A stretch of DNA of 64,000 nucleotides, taken from positions 32,001 through 96,000 of the forward strand of contig JAZDNO010000005.1 of assembly GCA_043799545.1 (NCBI GenBank), written 5' to 3'. Positions 57,914 through 63,826 of this stretch are shown here, piece after piece. A model generated the notes under the pieces. It was given only the letters and a program-made list of their open reading frames with translations, was not told where the DNA came from and did no database searches. The position numbers and the translations under genes were made by a program. Numbering within the stretch: position 1 is the first letter of the stretch; each line of letters starts with the position of its first letter. The stretch is from Methanobacteriota archaeon. GTDB taxonomy: Archaea; Thermoplasmatota; Thermoplasmata; SG8-5; DAIRED01.

Positions 57914-59584
57914 TCACCCTGCCAGGCTCGCGTCCATAGTTGCCATCACAGAGTCGCGGACGCCCGCGGCGTCTTTCTTCAGCTTGTTAACTGCCGATAT
58001 CATTGCGTTCTTGTAGGTCTCGTCCTTGACCTCTTTCAAATTGATGAGCACGTTCATGAGCGCACCCTCCACCCCGGTCCAGGCCGCCAGCGCAGCCACT
58101 CCAGCATCGGAGGCCGAGTTTTTATTGCCTTTTTCTGCCACTTCCTTCGCGAGCTCAAGGGCGCGCAAGCACAGCTTCGCCGTTCCCAGCGGCACGCCTA
58201 TCGCTTTTTTATAACCATCCTGGATAGCCGCGTCCCGAGCCGAGATTTGCTCCGGCGTCTTTTTTGGCAGGCGCATCGCCTCCATCAAGGAGTTGAAGGC
58301 GCTGGTGTCGTCGTCCACGCACCTGCATAATCTGTCCTTCACAGATTGCGCCTCGCGCGATAGCTCGTCCATCCTCGCGAAGTCTTGCTCGTACCCTTTC
58401 TTGCCCACTGTGAGGTTCGCCACCATCGCGGCCAGGGCGGCCCCGAGCGCTCCAGACAGGGCGGCAACGCTGCCGCCTCCGGGCGCTGGGGAATCTGAAG
58501 AGACTTCGTCGACGAAACGCTTCGCGGTCATGGACATGAGCGGAGCATGGGGCGAGAACTGGTATTCGATTACCTTCTTCGAAGGGTCGAACTCGGAGAG
58601 CTGGTCTAGGCCGAGCGATTTCACGGCCATGGCTATGAGCTCGTAGTCTGGAACCCCCGTCGATTTGCCCTGCCTTTTGAAATAGTATCTCCCAGCCTCC
58701 AGAAGGGGCTCGAGGGGGATGAGCCCGACCAGCTCGCTGCCCGTTACCCGCAGGCCAAGTTTGTGGGCTCCCTCGCAGGCAGCCTCGAAGACGGCGTGGG
58801 GCGGGGTCATTTTCCAATTGGTCAGGTTGATGGAAATCTGTGCCTGGCCGTACTGCTCGATGTACCATCCTACGGCCTTGACCGCTTTGAACTTCCCCGG
58901 AATTTTGACAGTGTTGCCGTCGGCGTCCTTCAGGGTCTTCCCGTCAGGACCCTTCTTGGGTCTTCCAGCCTCGCGGATGTCCAGCGCGATTTCGTGCGCC
59001 AGCTTCTTGTCCTTTGTGTTCAGGTTGACGTTGTACGCTATGAGAAAATCGCGCGCCCCGATTATAACCGCCCCGGTCTTAGGCTTGAATTCCGAGGGGC
59101 CGAAATCTGGCTTCCATTCGGATTTCTTCAGCTTCTCCAGGAGACCCTCGTACTCACCCGCTCGTACTTCAGCTAGGTTGCGGCGCTCCGGTTTTGTAGC
59201 CGCATGCTCGTAGAGATATACGGGTATCTCCAGCTCCCTGCCTACGCGTTCCCCGACCTCCCGCGCGAGCGCCACGCAGTCATCCATGGTCACCCCGGAG
59301 ACTGGAATGAACGGGCAGACGTCGGTGGCGCCCATGCGCGCGTGCGCGCCGTGGTGCTTGCCCATGTCAATGACCTCGGAGGCTTTTCTAATCGCCTGGA
59401 AGGCAGCTTCCTTGACCCCCTCGGGCGAACCGACAAAGGTCACTACTGTGCGGTTCGTATCGGCTCCGGGGTCGACGTCCAGAAGCTTCACGTCCGGCAC
59501 CTCCTTGATGGCATCGGTTATGGCTTCTATCTTCTTCAGGTCCCGCCCCTCGCTGAAGTTCGGAACGCACTCGACGATTCTCAT
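57914..59584 (-). CDS. ftcD: Glutamate formiminotransferase-cyclodeaminase fusion
   Basis: VECVPNFSEGR, H.G.H.RMGATDVCPF; C-terminal PAPGGGSVAA cyclodeaminase domain. Confidence 0.95.
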   Translation of the reverse strand: MRIVECVPNFSEGRDLKKIEAITDAIKEVPDVKLLDVDPGADTNRTVVTFVGSPEGVKEAAFQAIRKASEVIDMGKHHGAHARMGATDVCPFIPVSGVTMDDCVALAREVGERVGRELEIPVYLYEHAATKPERRNLAEVRAGEYEGLLEKLKKSEWKPDFGPSEFKPKTGAVIIGARDFLIAYNVNLNTKDKKLAHEIALDIREAGRPKKGPDGKTLKDADGNTVKIPGKFKAVKAVGWYIEQYGQAQISINLTNWKMTPPHAVFEAACEGAHKLGLRVTGSELVGLIPLEPLLEAGRYYFKRQGKSTGVPDYELIAMAVKSLGLDQLSEFDPSKKVIEYQFSPHAPLMSMTAKRFVDEVSSDSPAPGGGSVAALSGALGAALAAMVANLTVGKKGYEQDFARMDELSREAQSVKDRLCRCVDDDTSAFNSLMEAMRLPKKTPEQISARDAAIQDGYKKAIGVPLGTAKLCLRALELAKEVAEKGNKNSASDAGVAALAAWTGVEGALMNVLINLKEVKDETYKNAMISAVNKLKKDAAGVRDSVMATMDASLAG

Positions 59585-59708
59585 GGCGACCACTGCCCCT
59601 AAATTGAACTAATACTATAAGTGTTTGACCCGCCGCGCTCATGTTTTGGCTTTCTGGGCATGCAAAACCCTTATAAACGGGCTCCGTTTCACCAACCCTG
59701 CGATTTAC

Positions 59709-59876
59709 ATGAACGACGAAGTGGCATGCAACTCCTGTGGCATCAGGCTGATAGGAAACAAGGACACCAAGTTCAACTGTCCAGACTGCGGCGCGGTCAT
59801 AATGGGCCGATGCGAGCAGTGCAGGGACCAGAGCATAGTATACAAGTGCCCCAAGTGCGGGTTTGCGGGACCGTGA
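59709..59876 (+). CDS. Small Zn-ribbon protein (HVO_2753/DUF1610-like)
   Basis: [26 protein letters not shown]; directly upstream of aEF-1beta. Confidence 0.9.
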
Positions 59877-59880
59877 GCCA

Positions 59881-60150
59881 ATGGGCGACGTGTTGATATT
59901 CTTCCAGGCGGCGCCAGAGGGACTGGAGACTGACCTGGGCAAGATGCGCGCCGGCCTCGAAGCCGTTGCCAAAAAGCACGGCAGGCTCCCAGGTCCAATC
60001 GAGCAGAAGCCGCTGGCATTCGGCCTCGAGGCGCTGATAGTCAAGGTCATCATCCCCGACAAGGCGGGCCTCATGGACAAGCTGGAGGCGGAGCTGAGGG
60101 CGGTCGAGGGCGTCAGCAACGTAGAGACGCTGGATATGAGCCTGATTTGA
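59881..60150 (+). CDS. ef1b: Elongation factor aEF-1beta
   Basis: PLAFGL.AL..IPD..G..D.LE..L..VEGV. Confidence 0.9.
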   Translation: MGDVLIFFQAAPEGLETDLGKMRAGLEAVAKKHGRLPGPIEQKPLAFGLEALIVKVIIPDKAGLMDKLEAELRAVEGVSNVETLDMSLI

Positions 60151-60282
60151 GGCTATTCAAAGAGTCACGTTAATTATAAAATAGGTATCCGTCAGACAAG
60201 AAATATTGGACGATTTTGATAGCTAACTGGTTGGACGCGTCTCTCGGCGTTTGTTAATTGTTAGTTCTGTCAGATTGGCTCG

Positions 60283-60630
60283 CTATTTTGAATTCATTCT
60301 CTCAATTAAATCCGTTTTTGTATATTTAGTGGTTATATTATTATATGAACGTTTTCGTACTTCTGCAGCATGTACAAATACTGCGCGCTGAAGCAATTCG
60401 ACGTAGGCACTTCTTTTCAATCGATATAGCTTTATTCTTCCTTTCCCAACAGGCCTAGATTCAACGATTATTGCAACTCGCTCTAGATATAAAAGAGAAT
60501 CTCTAATGGCTGGAAGTGATCGATCCAATGCTTCAGCAATTTCACTCACGACGTAATCGAATCTAGGATGCGCCAAAAGAAAATCAAATACTTCTATATC
60601 GAGTTTGGATCGAAACATATCTTCAATCAT
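60283..60630 (-). CDS. wHTH protein (AT-rich)
   Basis: YVVSEIAEALDRS..IRDSL..LE..RPVGKGRIKLYRL; SD GGAGGAG; ATGATTGA overlap with the upstream gene. Confidence 0.75.
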   Translation of the reverse strand: MIEDMFRSKLDIEVFDFLLAHPRFDYVVSEIAEALDRSLPAIRDSLLYLERVAIIVESRPVGKGRIKLYRLKRSAYVELLQRAVFVHAAEVRKRSYNNITTKYTKTDLIERMNSK

Positions 60631-61897
60631 GTTTCTCTCCTCCAATTAAATTGTATGTTTTGCATATAATAATACAAATTTTTCTATGCCCTGATATAAT
60701 AAATGTTAGTGATATGAGTAACGCATAATTGTTTAATTTATTATATAAAGAATCTAACTTATTTGTATTATAAAAAATAGATAAATTTCTATCGACACTT
60801 TTATAAAAATAACAATAAAACTCATTTTCCACATCGCATTTTACAATGAAGCCCAACCTTGAAATCTTATTATTATCATTAAGTTGTAAAAGGCAAAGTA
60901 ATAAGATTGCCAGTTGTAAATACTGGTGAAGATCATTTTTGTTATTTATTGCGATGGTAAGATTCGTTGATGCACTCATTCTATTGAAGACATCAAGTGC
61001 GTTCGTGTTCTTAGAGGCATCAACTTCGAAAGGGAGTATTAAGATTCCAATTGTTGAAATTCCCATTGATTTTGCAACTTCAGTTACATATGGGGCGGCA
61101 CCAGAGCCAACTCCTCTGCTGAGATCTGCGAGGACGATGGTTTTGTCGGCGCCTTCTAGCACGTCATGGATCTCTTTATCACACCTGGCAGAGCACGCCT
61201 CTCCAATCTCGGGGTAGGTATCGGACTTACCAAACGTCGGGTCCATATCCTTGCAGAAACCCAGTCCCTTGGCCCGGTGGAGGTTCTCGTTGTCCATGGC
61301 GATGGTCAGGTTAGTCGAGCCCTTCATTCTTTTGAGATACTCCATGGCGGCCGCGCGCCTCGGCGCCTCGGCCGCGAACGGCAGGACGACTATGTCGAAG
61401 GTGAAAATCCCCATGGACTTCGCCACGTCCGCAACGTAAGGCGCGGCGCCGGAGCCGACACCTCCTCCGAGGCCGGCCACGACAATGGCCATGTCCGCCC
61501 CGTTGAGGGCCTTGCGGATTTCCGCGTCGCATCTGGCCGTGCACGCCTCCCCCACCCCGGGATAGACCGCCGATTTGCCGAAGGTGCGGTCTCTGCCGAC
61601 CTGCACGACTTTGCCCGATTTGGCTTTCGTCAGGCTTGCCCAATCCGAGTTGAGGTAAGTTGCGGTGATGTTTGGCAGAGCGCTGGTGATATGTTTGTCA
61701 GGTTTGTAGCCTGCGTCGCAGCAGGCGATTATTCGCAAGCCGTGGTTCCAGGTCAGCTCTCGTTTACACTCATCGCGCTCTCTGGACATCACGTCTGATT
61801 CGCAGATTATGGCTGGTGTCATCTTCTTTCCTCCACTTTCGCTAGCTCTTTGCGACGTGCTGTCGTCGTGCATCCCATCCTTCCGCCCGGCTGGCAT
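60623..61897 (-). CDS. Degenerate FtsZ-like protein: N-terminal GTPase domain, partial tandem duplicate and AT-rich tail
   Basis: GADMAIVVAGLGGGVGSGAAPYVADVAK..VVLPF..E..DNENL; second copy ADLSRGVGSGAAPYVTEVAK; no C-terminal FtsZ domain. Confidence 0.75.
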   Translation of the reverse strand: MPAGRKDGMHDDSTSQRASESGGKKMTPAIICESDVMSRERDECKRELTWNHGLRIIACCDAGYKPDKHITSALPNITATYLNSDWASLTKAKSGKVVQVGRDRTFGKSAVYPGVGEACTARCDAEIRKALNGADMAIVVAGLGGGVGSGAAPYVADVAKSMGIFTFDIVVLPFAAEAPRRAAAMEYLKRMKGSTNLTIAMDNENLHRAKGLGFCKDMDPTFGKSDTYPEIGEACSARCDKEIHDVLEGADKTIVLADLSRGVGSGAAPYVTEVAKSMGISTIGILILPFEVDASKNTNALDVFNRMSASTNLTIAINNKNDLHQYLQLAILLLCLLQLNDNNKISRLGFIVKCDVENEFYCYFYKSVDRNLSIFYNTNKLDSLYNKLNNYALLISLTFIISGHRKICIIICKTYNLIGGEKHD

Positions 61898-61956
61898 GGC
61901 TTACCCCGCCTGCTCGCGAGAGCCGGGCGACCGAGAGTCTAAACATCGTTGAGGTC

Positions 61957-62349
61957 TCATCTAGAGGCTATCAACTGCTTGTTCTCGGTTACACTGAGGG
62001 CTACTTCCTGTCCCGAGGACCGCGCCATGACCCTGAACCGCTCCTCTAGCCGCTTGACCTGGTCGGCCTCGAAGAAGATGTCAATCATTCGCCTGAGAGC
62101 CTTCTCCCTGCCCGAAAACCATCCGTTCTTCACGATGCTATCGAGGTAGTTTATCTCGGCCGGAGACAACTCAACGCAGATTGGCACGTCCTGACCCGGC
62201 GACGGTTCCTCCATCGCTTGGTCCAGGGCGATTCTGACCAGCTCGGACCTCGTGAGCCCGAGCCTCTTGGCCCTCTCCGTCACGCTGTTCACGTACTCGG
62301 GAGAGAGTCGTATGGTCATTCGCTCGTTTACTTTTTCCGCCTGATCCAT
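61957..62349 (-). CDS. Tandem ribbon-helix-helix (CopG/CdrS-like) regulator
   Basis: ERMTIRLS..LTRSELVRIAL and ICVELS..LDSIVKNG.F..REKALR. Confidence 0.85.
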   Translation of the reverse strand: MDQAEKVNERMTIRLSPEYVNSVTERAKRLGLTRSELVRIALDQAMEEPSPGQDVPICVELSPAEINYLDSIVKNGWFSGREKALRRMIDIFFEADQVKRLEERFRVMARSSGQEVALSVTENKQLIASR

Positions 62350-62377
62350 TGTTCACCCTTTGCGTCGGTTATTCATC

Positions 62378-62471
62378 ATAGGACGCTGTAGGACATATAT
62401 ATCCTTCTTAATATAATATGTTTTCGCTTAAATTTATATATTTACCACTTTCAATTTTTAGGTGTAGGACA
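62378..62471. promoter_or_regulatory. Repeated TGTAGGACA motif upstream of the RHH gene
   Basis: TGTAGGACA at 62387-62395 and 62463-62471; partial ATAGGAC at 62378-62384; flanks are very AT-rich. Confidence 0.45.
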
Positions 62472-62670
62472 GAAATAATTACTAATATTATATAATATTT
62501 TAGAAAATTATATATATGAATTTACAGAAGATAACTTTATATAGCGATATAATCATAATAGTCACAATGAAAAATAGGCTTGTTGTTAGAGTGCATCCCA
62601 TCCTTTGTGCTGGGGCAAAGAATCCTCTCATCATGTTACTTACATTCACCATCTCCTGGGGAGGGTTATT

Positions 62671-62994
62671 ATGAAGAAAAAAGGGGCGATTTTGACCGAT
62701 TTTGATTTAATGTGTGCAATTATATACCTATTATGTATGTATAACACCCCTACAAGTGAAACCGAGATTCTCATGGGATCTCCACTTTCAATAAGGCTGC
62801 GTGTAAAAAAGCTTCTGTGTCTCCATTCGCAGGGCAATATTCCAATATTTCGCAAGGAACGCCGAAATGGTGTTTGGTATTATTGGATAAATCCAGAGGT
62901 TTATTCCGCTTGTATAGATTTACTGGCAGAAGAGAACTTTATTAAATTTGAGGATGCGTGTAAAATATTACAAAGGAAGAAGCCAGTAAAATAA
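62671..62994 (+). CDS. Hypothetical AT-rich wHTH-like protein
   Basis: SD GGGAGGG; TSETEI..VKKLL..RKERRNGVWYYWIN wing-like segment. Confidence 0.55.
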   Translation: MKKKGAILTDFDLMCAIIYLLCMYNTPTSETEILMGSPLSIRLRVKKLLCLHSQGNIPIFRKERRNGVWYYWINPEVYSACIDLLAEENFIKFEDACKILQRKKPVK

Positions 62995-63022
62995 ATCTAT
63001 GATTATTTAATACACAAACCTA

Positions 63023-63200
63023 GCCCTAATTCCCCGACCTTCAGGTTGGGGATGTAGGGCGGGTAAGCATCGGCTAACCCGGAGCATCTTTTTAGCCATA
63101 CAAGGGTGTACCGCTTTACCAAACACGGGAGGAAACCATGTTCGAAACCTCCGTGTTTCTCATTCCTCACGGACGGGGGTACCCCTCTCGGGCGACCATG
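63023..63200. mobile_element. Possible non-autonomous IS200/IS605-like remnant (hairpin ends, no transposase)
   Basis: Hairpin GCCCTA..TCCCCGACCT-TC-AGGTTGGGGA..TAGGGC at 63023-63060; degenerate TTCCTCACGGACGGGGGTA near 63172-63190; internal hairpin at about 63121-63158. Confidence 0.4.
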
Positions 63201-63246
63201 GCGCGTTTTTCGATAGTTTAATTACCCCCAATGGGTTGAGCAAATC

Positions 63247-63573
63247 ATGGCCAAGAGCCACAAGTTCGACCGCATGAAGCGCCAGCGCCAAGAAATCGCC
63301 GCCTCGCGCATCGAAACCCTGATGTCCCTGGCCGACGACCGGGGAAAGTCGCACGACCTCAAGTACGCTTCAAGGTACGTCACGCTCGCAAGGTCGATAG
63401 GGATGCGCTACAACGTGCGGCTTCGGTCTGCCGAGAAGCTGAAGGTCTGCAAGGGCTGCGGGGCATATCTGCTGCCGGGGATAACCCTGAGGGTTCGCAC
63501 GGGCAGGAAAACCTTAGTGAGGACTTGCCTCGAATGCGGCCTCGTCAGAAGGATGCCGCTGGAGAAAAGGTGA
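63247..63573 (+). CDS. rnp4: RNase P protein component 4 (Rpp21/Rpr2)
   Basis: IA..RIETL..YV.LAR.I.M..CKGC..L.PG..R.R..CLECG..RR.P. Confidence 0.93.
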   Translation: MAKSHKFDRMKRQRQEIAASRIETLMSLADDRGKSHDLKYASRYVTLARSIGMRYNVRLRSAEKLKVCKGCGAYLLPGITLRVRTGRKTLVRTCLECGLVRRMPLEKR

Positions 63574-63577
63574 AACC

Positions 63578-63826
63578 ATGGATTCGAAAACCCGCGCCAT
63601 GTTCAAGGGAAAGGCTCAGTCGCTGAAGGTCACGCTCCGCGCCGGAAAGGCAGGATTGACGGAGACGCTGGCAAAGGAGCTGGACTACCAGCTAAAGGAG
63701 AACAAGCTCGTGAAAGCTAGGATACTGAAAGGCGATGTCGAGGACATAGCCCGAAAGCTCGCGGAGGCCGCGAGGGCTGAGCTGGTCGAGGTCCGCGGAA
63801 AGACCGCGGTTTTCTGGAGAAAGTAG
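63578..63826 (+). CDS. YhbY/CRM-domain RNA-binding protein
   Basis: L..T..GK.GLT..L..QL....LVK.RIL..ELVEVRGKT.VF. Confidence 0.9.
   Translation: MDSKTRAMFKGKAQSLKVTLRAGKAGLTETLAKELDYQLKENKLVKARILKGDVEDIARKLAEAARAELVEVRGKTAVFWRK

Follow-up and report, generated by a model that had tools for sequence, protein, structure and literature searches.

An internally duplicated, probably degenerating half-FtsZ gene beside a tandem ribbon-helix-helix gene on an inserted island in a Thermoplasmata genome

The closest described counterpart of the locus discussed here is the cdrS-ftsZ2 operon of Halobacteria and other Euryarchaeota, in which a ribbon-helix-helix (RHH) gene lies 5′ of an FtsZ-family gene (Darnell et al. 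2020, PMC7439475; Liao et al. 2021, PMC8406309); the latter paper describes CdrS as a small protein. Our locus lies in a stretch of 64,000 nucleotides from the genome of a Thermoplasmata archaeon (contig JAZDNO010000005.1, positions 32,001 to 96,000), and this whole stretch is referred to below as the window. It was singled out in a first-pass annotation, which matched it to the cdrS-ftsZ2 arrangement. The match holds for the order of the genes, since an RHH gene does lie immediately 5′ of an FtsZ-family gene and in the same orientation; the genes themselves differ, in that the RHH protein is a tandem double of 130 residues whereas CdrS has a single RHH, and the downstream gene is a half-length paralogue and not a full-length FtsZ2. 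On balance, we read the locus as a degenerating hybrid half-FtsZ paralogue, carried on an island beside a still-constrained RHH gene, the two forming an extra copy of a gene pair found throughout the Thermoplasmata.

Proteins that act on FtsZ filaments offer a further comparison. MciZ-bound FtsZ has been described as a ‘bottom capper’, and SulA is also an FtsZ filament inhibitor (bioRxiv 10.1101/2020.02.25.965095). In plants ARC3, which contains an FtsZ-like domain, directly inhibits assembly of the plastid Z-ring (bioRxiv 10.1101/2024.01.08.574726; domain scheme in PMC12232670). By analogy with MciZ-bound FtsZ and ARC3, we propose below that intact half-FtsZ might block filament ends to comparable effect, although neither MciZ, SulA nor ARC3 is homologous in architecture to a free-standing half-FtsZ, and the window copy differs from the proposed cap in having lost the T1 residues needed for nucleotide binding. 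A resemblance also exists to the type III plasmid partition systems (TubR/TubZ), in that a small DNA-binding gene stands beside a gene of the tubulin superfamily, in the window on what may be a mobile island. In those systems the polymerising GTPase TubZ is complete, having two domains and a T7 loop, and TubR is of the winged-helix type. A partition cassette of this type was considered and rejected: the tubulin-like protein in the window has neither T7 nor a second domain, and the module to which it belongs is chromosomal and found throughout the lineage.

The hybrid reading frame and its repeat

The host assembly (G000) is archaeal and of metagenome type, with 2.06 Mb in 31 contigs, and its relatives are Thermoplasmata, mostly Methanomassiliicoccales. 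Pfam finds the Tubulin domain PF00091 in two stretches (133 bits) of the 424-codon open reading frame (ORF) at 60623..61897 on the minus strand, which we call the hybrid. Its score against the FtsZ equivalog model TIGR00065 is 156.9 bits, well short of the cut-off of 295.2 and therefore below the threshold for canonical FtsZ. Self-alignment matches D103–R208 with D219–H325 without a gap, at 57.5% identity in amino acids and 61% in nucleotides and with a period of 116 codons (348 nt), in line with the in-frame duplication of roughly 115 residues noticed in the first-pass annotation. The hybrid is 424 (or 399) residues long, compared with 230–311 for the family, because the residues from T3 to H6 occur twice. 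The shorter figure is probably the correct one: judging from the aligned sequences, translation would start at M26 (61822), because the proteins of six relatives begin with MT.. at the corresponding position and the frame ahead of it varies between relatives.

The T1 loop is mutated, as had been reported. It reads ACCDAGYK, where all seven of the closest relatives have ACGGAGCN, and the canonical FtsZ pattern GGGxxN is absent from the hybrid (C-C-D-A-G-Y-K). The T3 loop is TFGKSA. Motif searches and alignment found no T7 loop (NxDxxD) and no C-terminal domain in the hybrid, with no residue aligned past H7. The unusual T3 and the missing T7 and C-terminal domain had also been pointed out, and correctly, but they are traits of the whole family and not signs of a broken gene. 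Copy 1 has GGGVGSG as its T4 loop, whereas in copy 2 the loop reads SRGVGSG, and the composition of copy 2 is foreign, both as previously described: the GC content at third codon positions (GC3) is 0.8–0.87 in copy 1, declines from 0.63 to 0.27 along copy 2, and is 0.10–0.33 in the tail. Residues 33–219 of the hybrid are 72% identical to the paralogue at C31 of the same genome, and the N-terminal part is 65–73% identical to the half-FtsZ members at genus level.

Loss of conserved residues was scored over 42 columns, each of them shared by 90% or more of 59 family members. The N-terminal part together with copy 1 keeps 35 of 40, copy 2 keeps 20 of 32, and the seven closest relatives keep 41–42 of 42. 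Sixteen residues are invariant in the family, among them G52 and G53 in T1 and G134, G136, G137, G138 and G142 in T4. The closest relatives keep all of these; the N-terminal part with copy 1 keeps 13 of the 16, having lost three (G52C, G53D and E106G), while copy 2 keeps 7 of 11 and has lost G134, G136, G137 and E169. Within T1, G52 and G53 are invariant in 59/59 members and N57 is present in 55/59; in the window the three are replaced by C, D and K. Over 194 aligned codons the window lineage has accumulated 37 unique amino acid changes, compared with 12 in the same-genus relative G001 and 7 in C31. The ratio of non-synonymous to synonymous substitution rates (dN/dS), which the first-pass annotation had suggested as a check for a pseudogene, is 0.17–0.23 in pairwise comparisons of the hybrid N part, against 0.14, and splitting the distances among three taxa gives about 0.25 on the window branch and about 0.09 on the C31 branch. 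Constraint is thus relaxed, but the ratio is not near 1.

In the AlphaFold2 model of the hybrid, the predicted local distance difference test score (pLDDT) is about 90 at residues 35–210 and 32–66 per 10-residue block for residues 211–424, with 32–45 in the tail. Only residues 35–210 are predicted to fold confidently.

The tail is stop-free, AT-rich and overlaps the start of the next gene, as had been noted, but it comprises 99 codons and looks like a diverged remnant of the H7 region and not a new appendage. It has 23.6% GC and no stop codon, for which shuffles give a chance of 5e-5 to 1.5e-4, and the other five frames over the same region have 5–14 stops. The stop codon of the hybrid overlaps the ATG of the following gene (ATGATTGA), and GGAGGAG precedes it. 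Pfam returned nothing meaningful for the tail alone; it aligns weakly with residues 191–234 (H7 and the following helix) of a close relative, P0242, the alignment being broken by a 21-residue hydrophobic insertion. The suggestion that the hydrophobic stretches form a membrane anchor was not borne out, as the best 19-residue window has a Kyte-Doolittle value of 1.78 and includes H, R and K, which makes it a weak transmembrane candidate.

The junction between the two copies lies at a short repeat. C31-type genes carry the 8-mer GGACCTGA both at the T3 site (..RDLTF..) and at the site at the end of H6 (..MDLIN..). Homology of the hybrid to C31 stops at 61237, exactly at the boundary of the repeat unit, at a GGACC(T/C)GA microhomology, and an in-frame, out-of-register exchange at these 8 nt would therefore produce the 116-codon repeat. 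Copy 2 is equidistant (61–64% nucleotide identity) from copy 1, C31 and G001 and has none of the derived residues of copy 1 (E106G, S157F, G160D and I193M). The phylogeny of the separate copies, again a check that had been proposed, places copy 2 on a long branch (0.58) within the genus-level clade. Synonymous distances (dS) to C31 and to the P0242 locus are about 0.5 for the RHH gene and about 1.0–1.2 for the FtsZ-like part, and the GC-rich part is thus itself a mosaic in age.

The half-FtsZ and tandem-RHH family

Full-length ftsZ occurs three times in the host genome, as an adjacent pair on contig C6 and as a single gene on contig C1, so that canonical ftsZ, which the first-pass annotation advised looking for, is present; the C6 pair has no RHH gene upstream. 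In addition there is an intact pair at C31:12982-14265, coding for an RHH protein of 127 residues and a half-FtsZ of 275 residues. Over 9 kb this stretch of C31 and G001:C8 are collinear (77% identity), which marks the C31 pair as the native locus.

To describe the family, one genome per GTDB species was surveyed, and the counts given here refer to the 80 best loci. In 51 of these an RHH homologue (111–172 residues) lies immediately 5′ of an FtsZ-like gene (230–353 residues), which makes the arrangement seen in the window a real and conserved one. All but one of the 51 RHH-paired genes encode 230–311 residues, have no NxDxxD, keep the T1 sequence G[CVIL]GGAG and usually have GGGTGTG as T4, while 26 of the 27 genes that do bear NxDxxD have no such RHH gene. 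The RHH-paired loci are all from Thermoplasmatota, mostly Methanomassiliicoccales, except for one contig labelled Dialister. The latter, L100 (CAVICI010000022.1, labelled Dialister hominis), carries an archaeal tandem-RHH and half-FtsZ pair and is probably a misbinned contig from a gut member of the Methanomassiliicoccales. In a collection of 5.8 billion proteins the family forms well over 100 clusters of 256–288 residues that have PF00091 only and bear the label ‘cell division protein FtsZ’ or ‘hypothetical’. No paper describing it was found in the literature searched; the family appears to be conserved across the Thermoplasmata and undescribed in that literature.

The structure of the C31 protein was predicted with AlphaFold2 from an alignment of 59 sequences (pLDDT 86.9). 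The model consists of an N-terminal helix, the six-stranded nucleotide-binding domain of FtsZ, H7, and one further helix. Superposed on solved FtsZ structures with Foldseek, it matches the N-domain and H7 only, over 186–193 columns with a root-mean-square deviation of 1.5–1.8 Å and 32–34% identity, and covers about 190 of some 305 FtsZ residues. A short peptide at the very C-terminus is conserved in many half-FtsZ proteins (..ADLDPMF.GFGP.MFG, or ..TPLAPGSR in the genus-level clade); it resembles the partner-binding C-terminal peptide of FtsZ and is missing from the window copy. We also note that four proteins of 731–840 residues from a library of 1.84 billion proteins (P0005, P0007, P0009 and P0017) have two stretches matching the half-FtsZ profile, so that half-FtsZ may occur elsewhere in a naturally doubled or fused form.

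A tandem RHH gene also occurs 5′ of full-length, T7-bearing FtsZ genes, at L017:994-2755, L020:761-2530 and L107:1104-2547. L107 is from Poseidoniia; L017 and L020 are from Methanomassiliicoccales, and each of these also has a half-FtsZ pair. Because the tandem RHH precedes T7-bearing FtsZ as well, this suggests that the half-FtsZ module derives from an RHH-ftsZ operon of the cdrS-ftsZ2 kind, a T7-bearing FtsZ with a tandem RHH being its likely ancestral state.

The RHH protein in the window matches PF01402 with 30.8 bits and the hidden Markov model of the RHH family with 182.6 bits (E 7.5e-56); its match to the aCcr1_fam profile is weak and below the cut-off (E 0.0084). Pfam gave nothing meaningful for its C-terminal half, and the second repeat emerges only from profile–profile comparison, in which hhalign matches the N-terminal and C-terminal halves with 96.6% probability (E 5e-10); the protein is thus a tandem double RHH. 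It is 87% identical to the C31 copy, with dN/dS of 0.13–0.15. Upstream, the sequence GTCCTAC-N3-GTCCTA is kept in position in the window, C31, G001 and the P0242 locus, and a third copy of TAGGAC is found at 62465-62470. In the wider family, TATGACA, TGTGACA or TAGGACA repeats surround the TATA box. Such operator-like repeats are a pointer to autoregulation by the RHH protein of the module, and the window RHH remains constrained and is probably able to bind the shared TAGGAC operators.

The window locus shares with the module the same-strand tandem RHH gene on the 5′ side, the N-domain followed by H7, the family variant of T3, and the operator-like repeats at the TATA box. It differs in being duplicated, in having lost the T1 glycines and E106, in the 24% GC of its C-terminal region and in its position on an inserted island, and it falls outside the form otherwise typical of the module, namely a single N-domain with H7 and one helix in 230–311 residues.

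The insertion and its surroundings

The positions of the features are collected in Table 1. In G001 (L021), the same-genus relative used for synteny, the EF-1β and Rpr2 genes are 62 bp apart; homology with the window ends at 60152 and resumes at 63203. The two genes are adjacent in G004 too, and the window carries 3,050 extra bases. The first-pass annotation would have taken an intact ftsZ here in relatives, together with dN/dS near 1 in this copy, as evidence of a pseudogene; this comparison does not apply, because the same-genus relative has nothing at the site and the 3-kb block is an insertion, the intact orthologous pair being elsewhere, on C31. The host genome has about 60% GC, while the outer parts of the insertion have 25–39% and its core is GC-rich. 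The core is 76% identical in nucleotides to G000:C31:13173-14346 and 73% to G001:C8. Elsewhere in the genome the island has only this 76% match at C31, one match of 85 nt and one of 33 nt.

Table 1. Features of the inserted island and the genes within it, in window coordinates.
Feature	Position	Strand	Remarks
Insertion, 3.05 kb	60153..63202		Between the genes for EF-1β (59863-60150) and RNase P Rpr2 (63247-63573); AT-rich outside, GC-rich core
Small winged-helix DNA-binding protein, 115 aa from ATG, AT-rich	60283..60630	-	Start overlaps stop of the hybrid FtsZ-like ORF
Hybrid, internally duplicated half-FtsZ ORF, 424 codons	60623..61897	-	PF00091 in two stretches; likely start M26 at 61822
AT-rich stop-free tail, 99 codons	60626..60922	-	Diverged remnant (H7 and next helix) with 21-residue hydrophobic insertion
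Repeat unit 2 (D219-H325)	60923..61243	-	GC3 0.63 to 0.27; T4 degraded to D-L-S-R-G-V-G-S-G
Recombination junction, ATG GAC CCG ACG	61237..61244	-	Inside microhomology; blastn homology to C31 stops at 61237
Repeat unit 1 (D103-M218), GC-rich	61244..61591	-	T3 to end of H6; T4 GGGVGSG intact; invariant E106 changed to G
Mutated T1 phosphate-binding loop	61703..61723	-	C-C-D-A-G-Y-K; family C-G-G-A-G-x-N
Tandem double RHH protein, 130 aa	61957..62349	-	PF01402; intact, under purifying selection
Presumed RHH operator	62379..62394	-	Two TAGGAC repeats (gene strand GTCCTA) 10 bp apart, between TATA-like box and RHH start
GC-rich island core	61237..62430	-	Promoter, RHH, FtsZ-like codons 1-219; homologous to native locus
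AT-rich small winged-helix-like protein, 129 aa ORF	62605..62994	+	107 aa from ATG at 62671; assigned from structure neighbours
GC-rich hairpin-bearing element, 85 nt	63018..63102	+	Right edge of AT-rich DNA; resembles sequence beside an IS200/IS605-type transposase gene

The gene that follows the hybrid has no Pfam or PHROG match, and no relatives were found in the host genome or in viral contigs. Its structure neighbours among the Atlas structures are winged helix-turn-helix proteins of MarR/ArsR/IclR type, with TM-scores of 0.63–0.79. Likewise, the protein at 62605-62994 belongs to no Pfam or PHROG family and has no relatives in viral contigs or, by tblastn, in the host genome, and its Atlas structure neighbours are winged helix-turn-helix proteins; the nearest feature clusters are mostly hypothetical proteins of viruses (score 0.91–0.92), which we treat as a lead only. 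The last 185 bp of the insertion are GC-rich and include the 85-nt hairpin element (CCCCGACC..GGTTGGGG). This element is 90.6% identical to C12:59048-59132, which lies within a 20-kb region of low GC and about 60 nt upstream of an ORF resembling a Y1 transposase (58482-58985), and it may be the end of an insertion sequence or a miniature derivative. The island contains no integrase and no replication gene. Rfam gave no match over 59500-63700 and there is no tRNA in the window, so that no RNA-gene integration site was identified. We considered whether the EF-1β/Rpr2 interval is a hot spot for insertion, as there is a gap of 2.4 kb in G002 and G005, and rejected this: the gap in G002 is occupied by a native, GC-rich gene for a 771-residue regulator. 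On the EF-1β side (59625-60150), a gene for a small HVO_2753-like zinc-finger protein overlaps the EF-1β start, and this arrangement is kept in G001, G002, G004 and G005.

One further repeated sequence was observed. The 12-mer GGATGGGATGCA occurs 7 times in the genome, compared with 0.25 expected by chance: at 61868-61882 and 62591-62605 in the window, at G000:C31:13802, at C2:23022, and on C18, C24 and C29. It sits in the spacer between the RHH and half-FtsZ genes of both the window and C31, where G001 has a near-identical motif (product MDGMQ), and also where two further genes begin, one of them ScpA-like; in several distant loci of the family, a related sequence stands ahead of the RHH gene. 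Two of the copies (62577-62609 and C2:22996-23028) share 33 nt.

Origin and fate of the window copy

The explanation that we favour, with moderate confidence, is that the hybrid is a degenerating gene formed by recombination. The island would be a 3.05-kb insertion of mostly AT-rich foreign DNA with two small winged-helix genes. Within it, a GC-rich segment comprising the promoter, the RHH gene and codons 1–219 would have been joined at the 8-nt microhomology, in frame and out of register, to a diverged homologue that contributed its AT-rich 3′ two-thirds (T3 to stop), and the 116-codon repeat would result. Unit 2 and the tail can be read as the complete 3′ two-thirds of such a differently composed homologue because the tail aligns weakly with the H7 region. 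Without the invariant glycines of T1 and the other invariant residues, the hybrid would no longer be a nucleotide-binding half-FtsZ; we infer the loss of this activity from the missing glycines and a second half that is not predicted to fold. The tail may have stayed open because the fusion is recent, or because ribosomes must reach the start of the overlapping winged-helix gene. Among the three options offered in the first-pass annotation (a polymerisation-dead cap or inhibitor, a membrane-anchored variant, and a decaying gene) it is the last that best fits the window copy, and recombination with a diverged homologue, which it also proposed, is the best reading of the junction.

Several observations weigh against this explanation. 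The dN/dS of about 0.25 on the window branch, though relaxed, is far from 1 and implies a mostly constrained history, and a tail of 99 codons without a stop, together with a junction in frame, would also agree with continued production and use of the protein. The alignment used by AlphaFold2 is shallow over copy 2 and the tail, and this shallowness itself lowers pLDDT there. Neither the protein collection nor viral or metagenome contigs yielded a full-length AT-rich homologue that could be the unrecombined donor: residues 215–424 retrieved only the hybrid itself and the C31 paralogue from the protein collection, while copy 2 with the tail found no relatives in viral contigs and only ordinary relatives (33–44% identical) in metagenome contigs; in the host genome, tblastn with copy 2 and the tail and with the small island proteins gave nothing. 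Finally, both copies fall within one genus-level clade, so that an old tandem duplication is conceivable.

In that last case no foreign homologue would be needed: unequal exchange at GGACCTGA within a single gene would have duplicated the unit, and the downstream unit and tail would have decayed towards AT in place. The 8-nt microhomology is indeed present within one C31-type gene, and both the missing donor and the position of copy 2 in the clade agree with such an origin. It nevertheless seems to us improbable: C31 and G001 are as close to copy 2 as copy 1 is, the residues derived in copy 1 do not recur in copy 2, and a fall in GC3 from 0.85 to 0.1–0.3 in one half of a gene, with the frame kept open, is hard to reach by local neutral decay. 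The winged-helix genes on either side are as AT-rich and yet intact, which points to imported AT-rich DNA; from the shift in composition and these intact AT-rich neighbours, recombination between a GC-rich and an AT-rich copy is therefore favoured over plain duplication. An origin of the AT-rich half by deamination or by a process like repeat-induced point mutation was rejected, because in the codon alignment copy 2 differs from its GC-rich relatives by a mixture of transitions and transversions. A contig assembled in error from host DNA, an AT-rich element or organism occurring alongside, and the half-FtsZ locus of a close strain would account for four sharp changes of composition within 3 kb, and an assembly of metagenome type in 31 contigs invites the suspicion. 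Such a chimera is very improbable: it would take four independent joins, both ends of the insertion return to syntenic host genes, no long exact repeat links the island to other parts of the genome in a way that might lead an assembler astray, and an in-frame junction of 8 nt is far below the k-mer length used in assembly.

It is also conceivable, if unlikely, that the hybrid is a functional new form, either a nucleotide-free cap or inhibitor of FtsZ ends or a protein tethered by its tail, used by a mobile element against the division or the half-FtsZ operon of the host. The open run of 99 AT-rich codons (P ~1e-4) coupled to the next gene would be understandable if so, as would the branch dN/dS of about 0.25 rather than 1; residues 35–210 are still predicted to fold confidently, the promoter, operators and RHH gene are intact with the last under purifying selection, and the island neighbours are small DNA-binding proteins, some with virus-like neighbours of their own. 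There would be a precedent in the homologues of the RHH cell-cycle regulator aCcr1 that Sulfolobales viruses carry (PMC9976878, PMC9976892). The architecture is a singleton, with no second example among 5.8 billion proteins or in the contig collections, invariant residues are gone from both repeat units, no fold is predicted for copy 2 and the tail, a clean transmembrane segment is lacking, and the island has no integrase or replication gene, all of which argue for decay instead. A related and rather doubtful proposal does not depend on the hybrid: the island could be the remnant of a mobile element with its own RHH/half-FtsZ copy, whose RHH protein, with or without the hybrid, would act on the same TAGGAC operators as the chromosomal copy and so re-set half-FtsZ expression or division in the host. 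This would be a parallel to the viral aCcr1 homologues.

Returning to the degenerating hybrid, the gene in the window is most likely a one-off evolutionary accident, in which recombination of diverged homologues at a microhomology, out of register, gave an in-frame internal duplication. Its specific features are those of a singleton, and the half-FtsZ module is of more interest than this copy of it. For the intact family, the most economical reading is that half-FtsZ would be a filament-end cap or sequestering partner of canonical FtsZ: it would offer its nucleotide-binding face to the T7 loop of FtsZ and have no T7-bearing face on which the filament could continue, and tight autoregulation by the RHH protein would fit a dose-sensitive inhibitor. 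Its members thus suggest themselves as candidates for a built-in FtsZ cap or regulator. As the window copy shows, imported DNA can carry the module, and the host genome provides a natural contrast between the intact C31 copy and the T1-dead, rearranged copy in the window.

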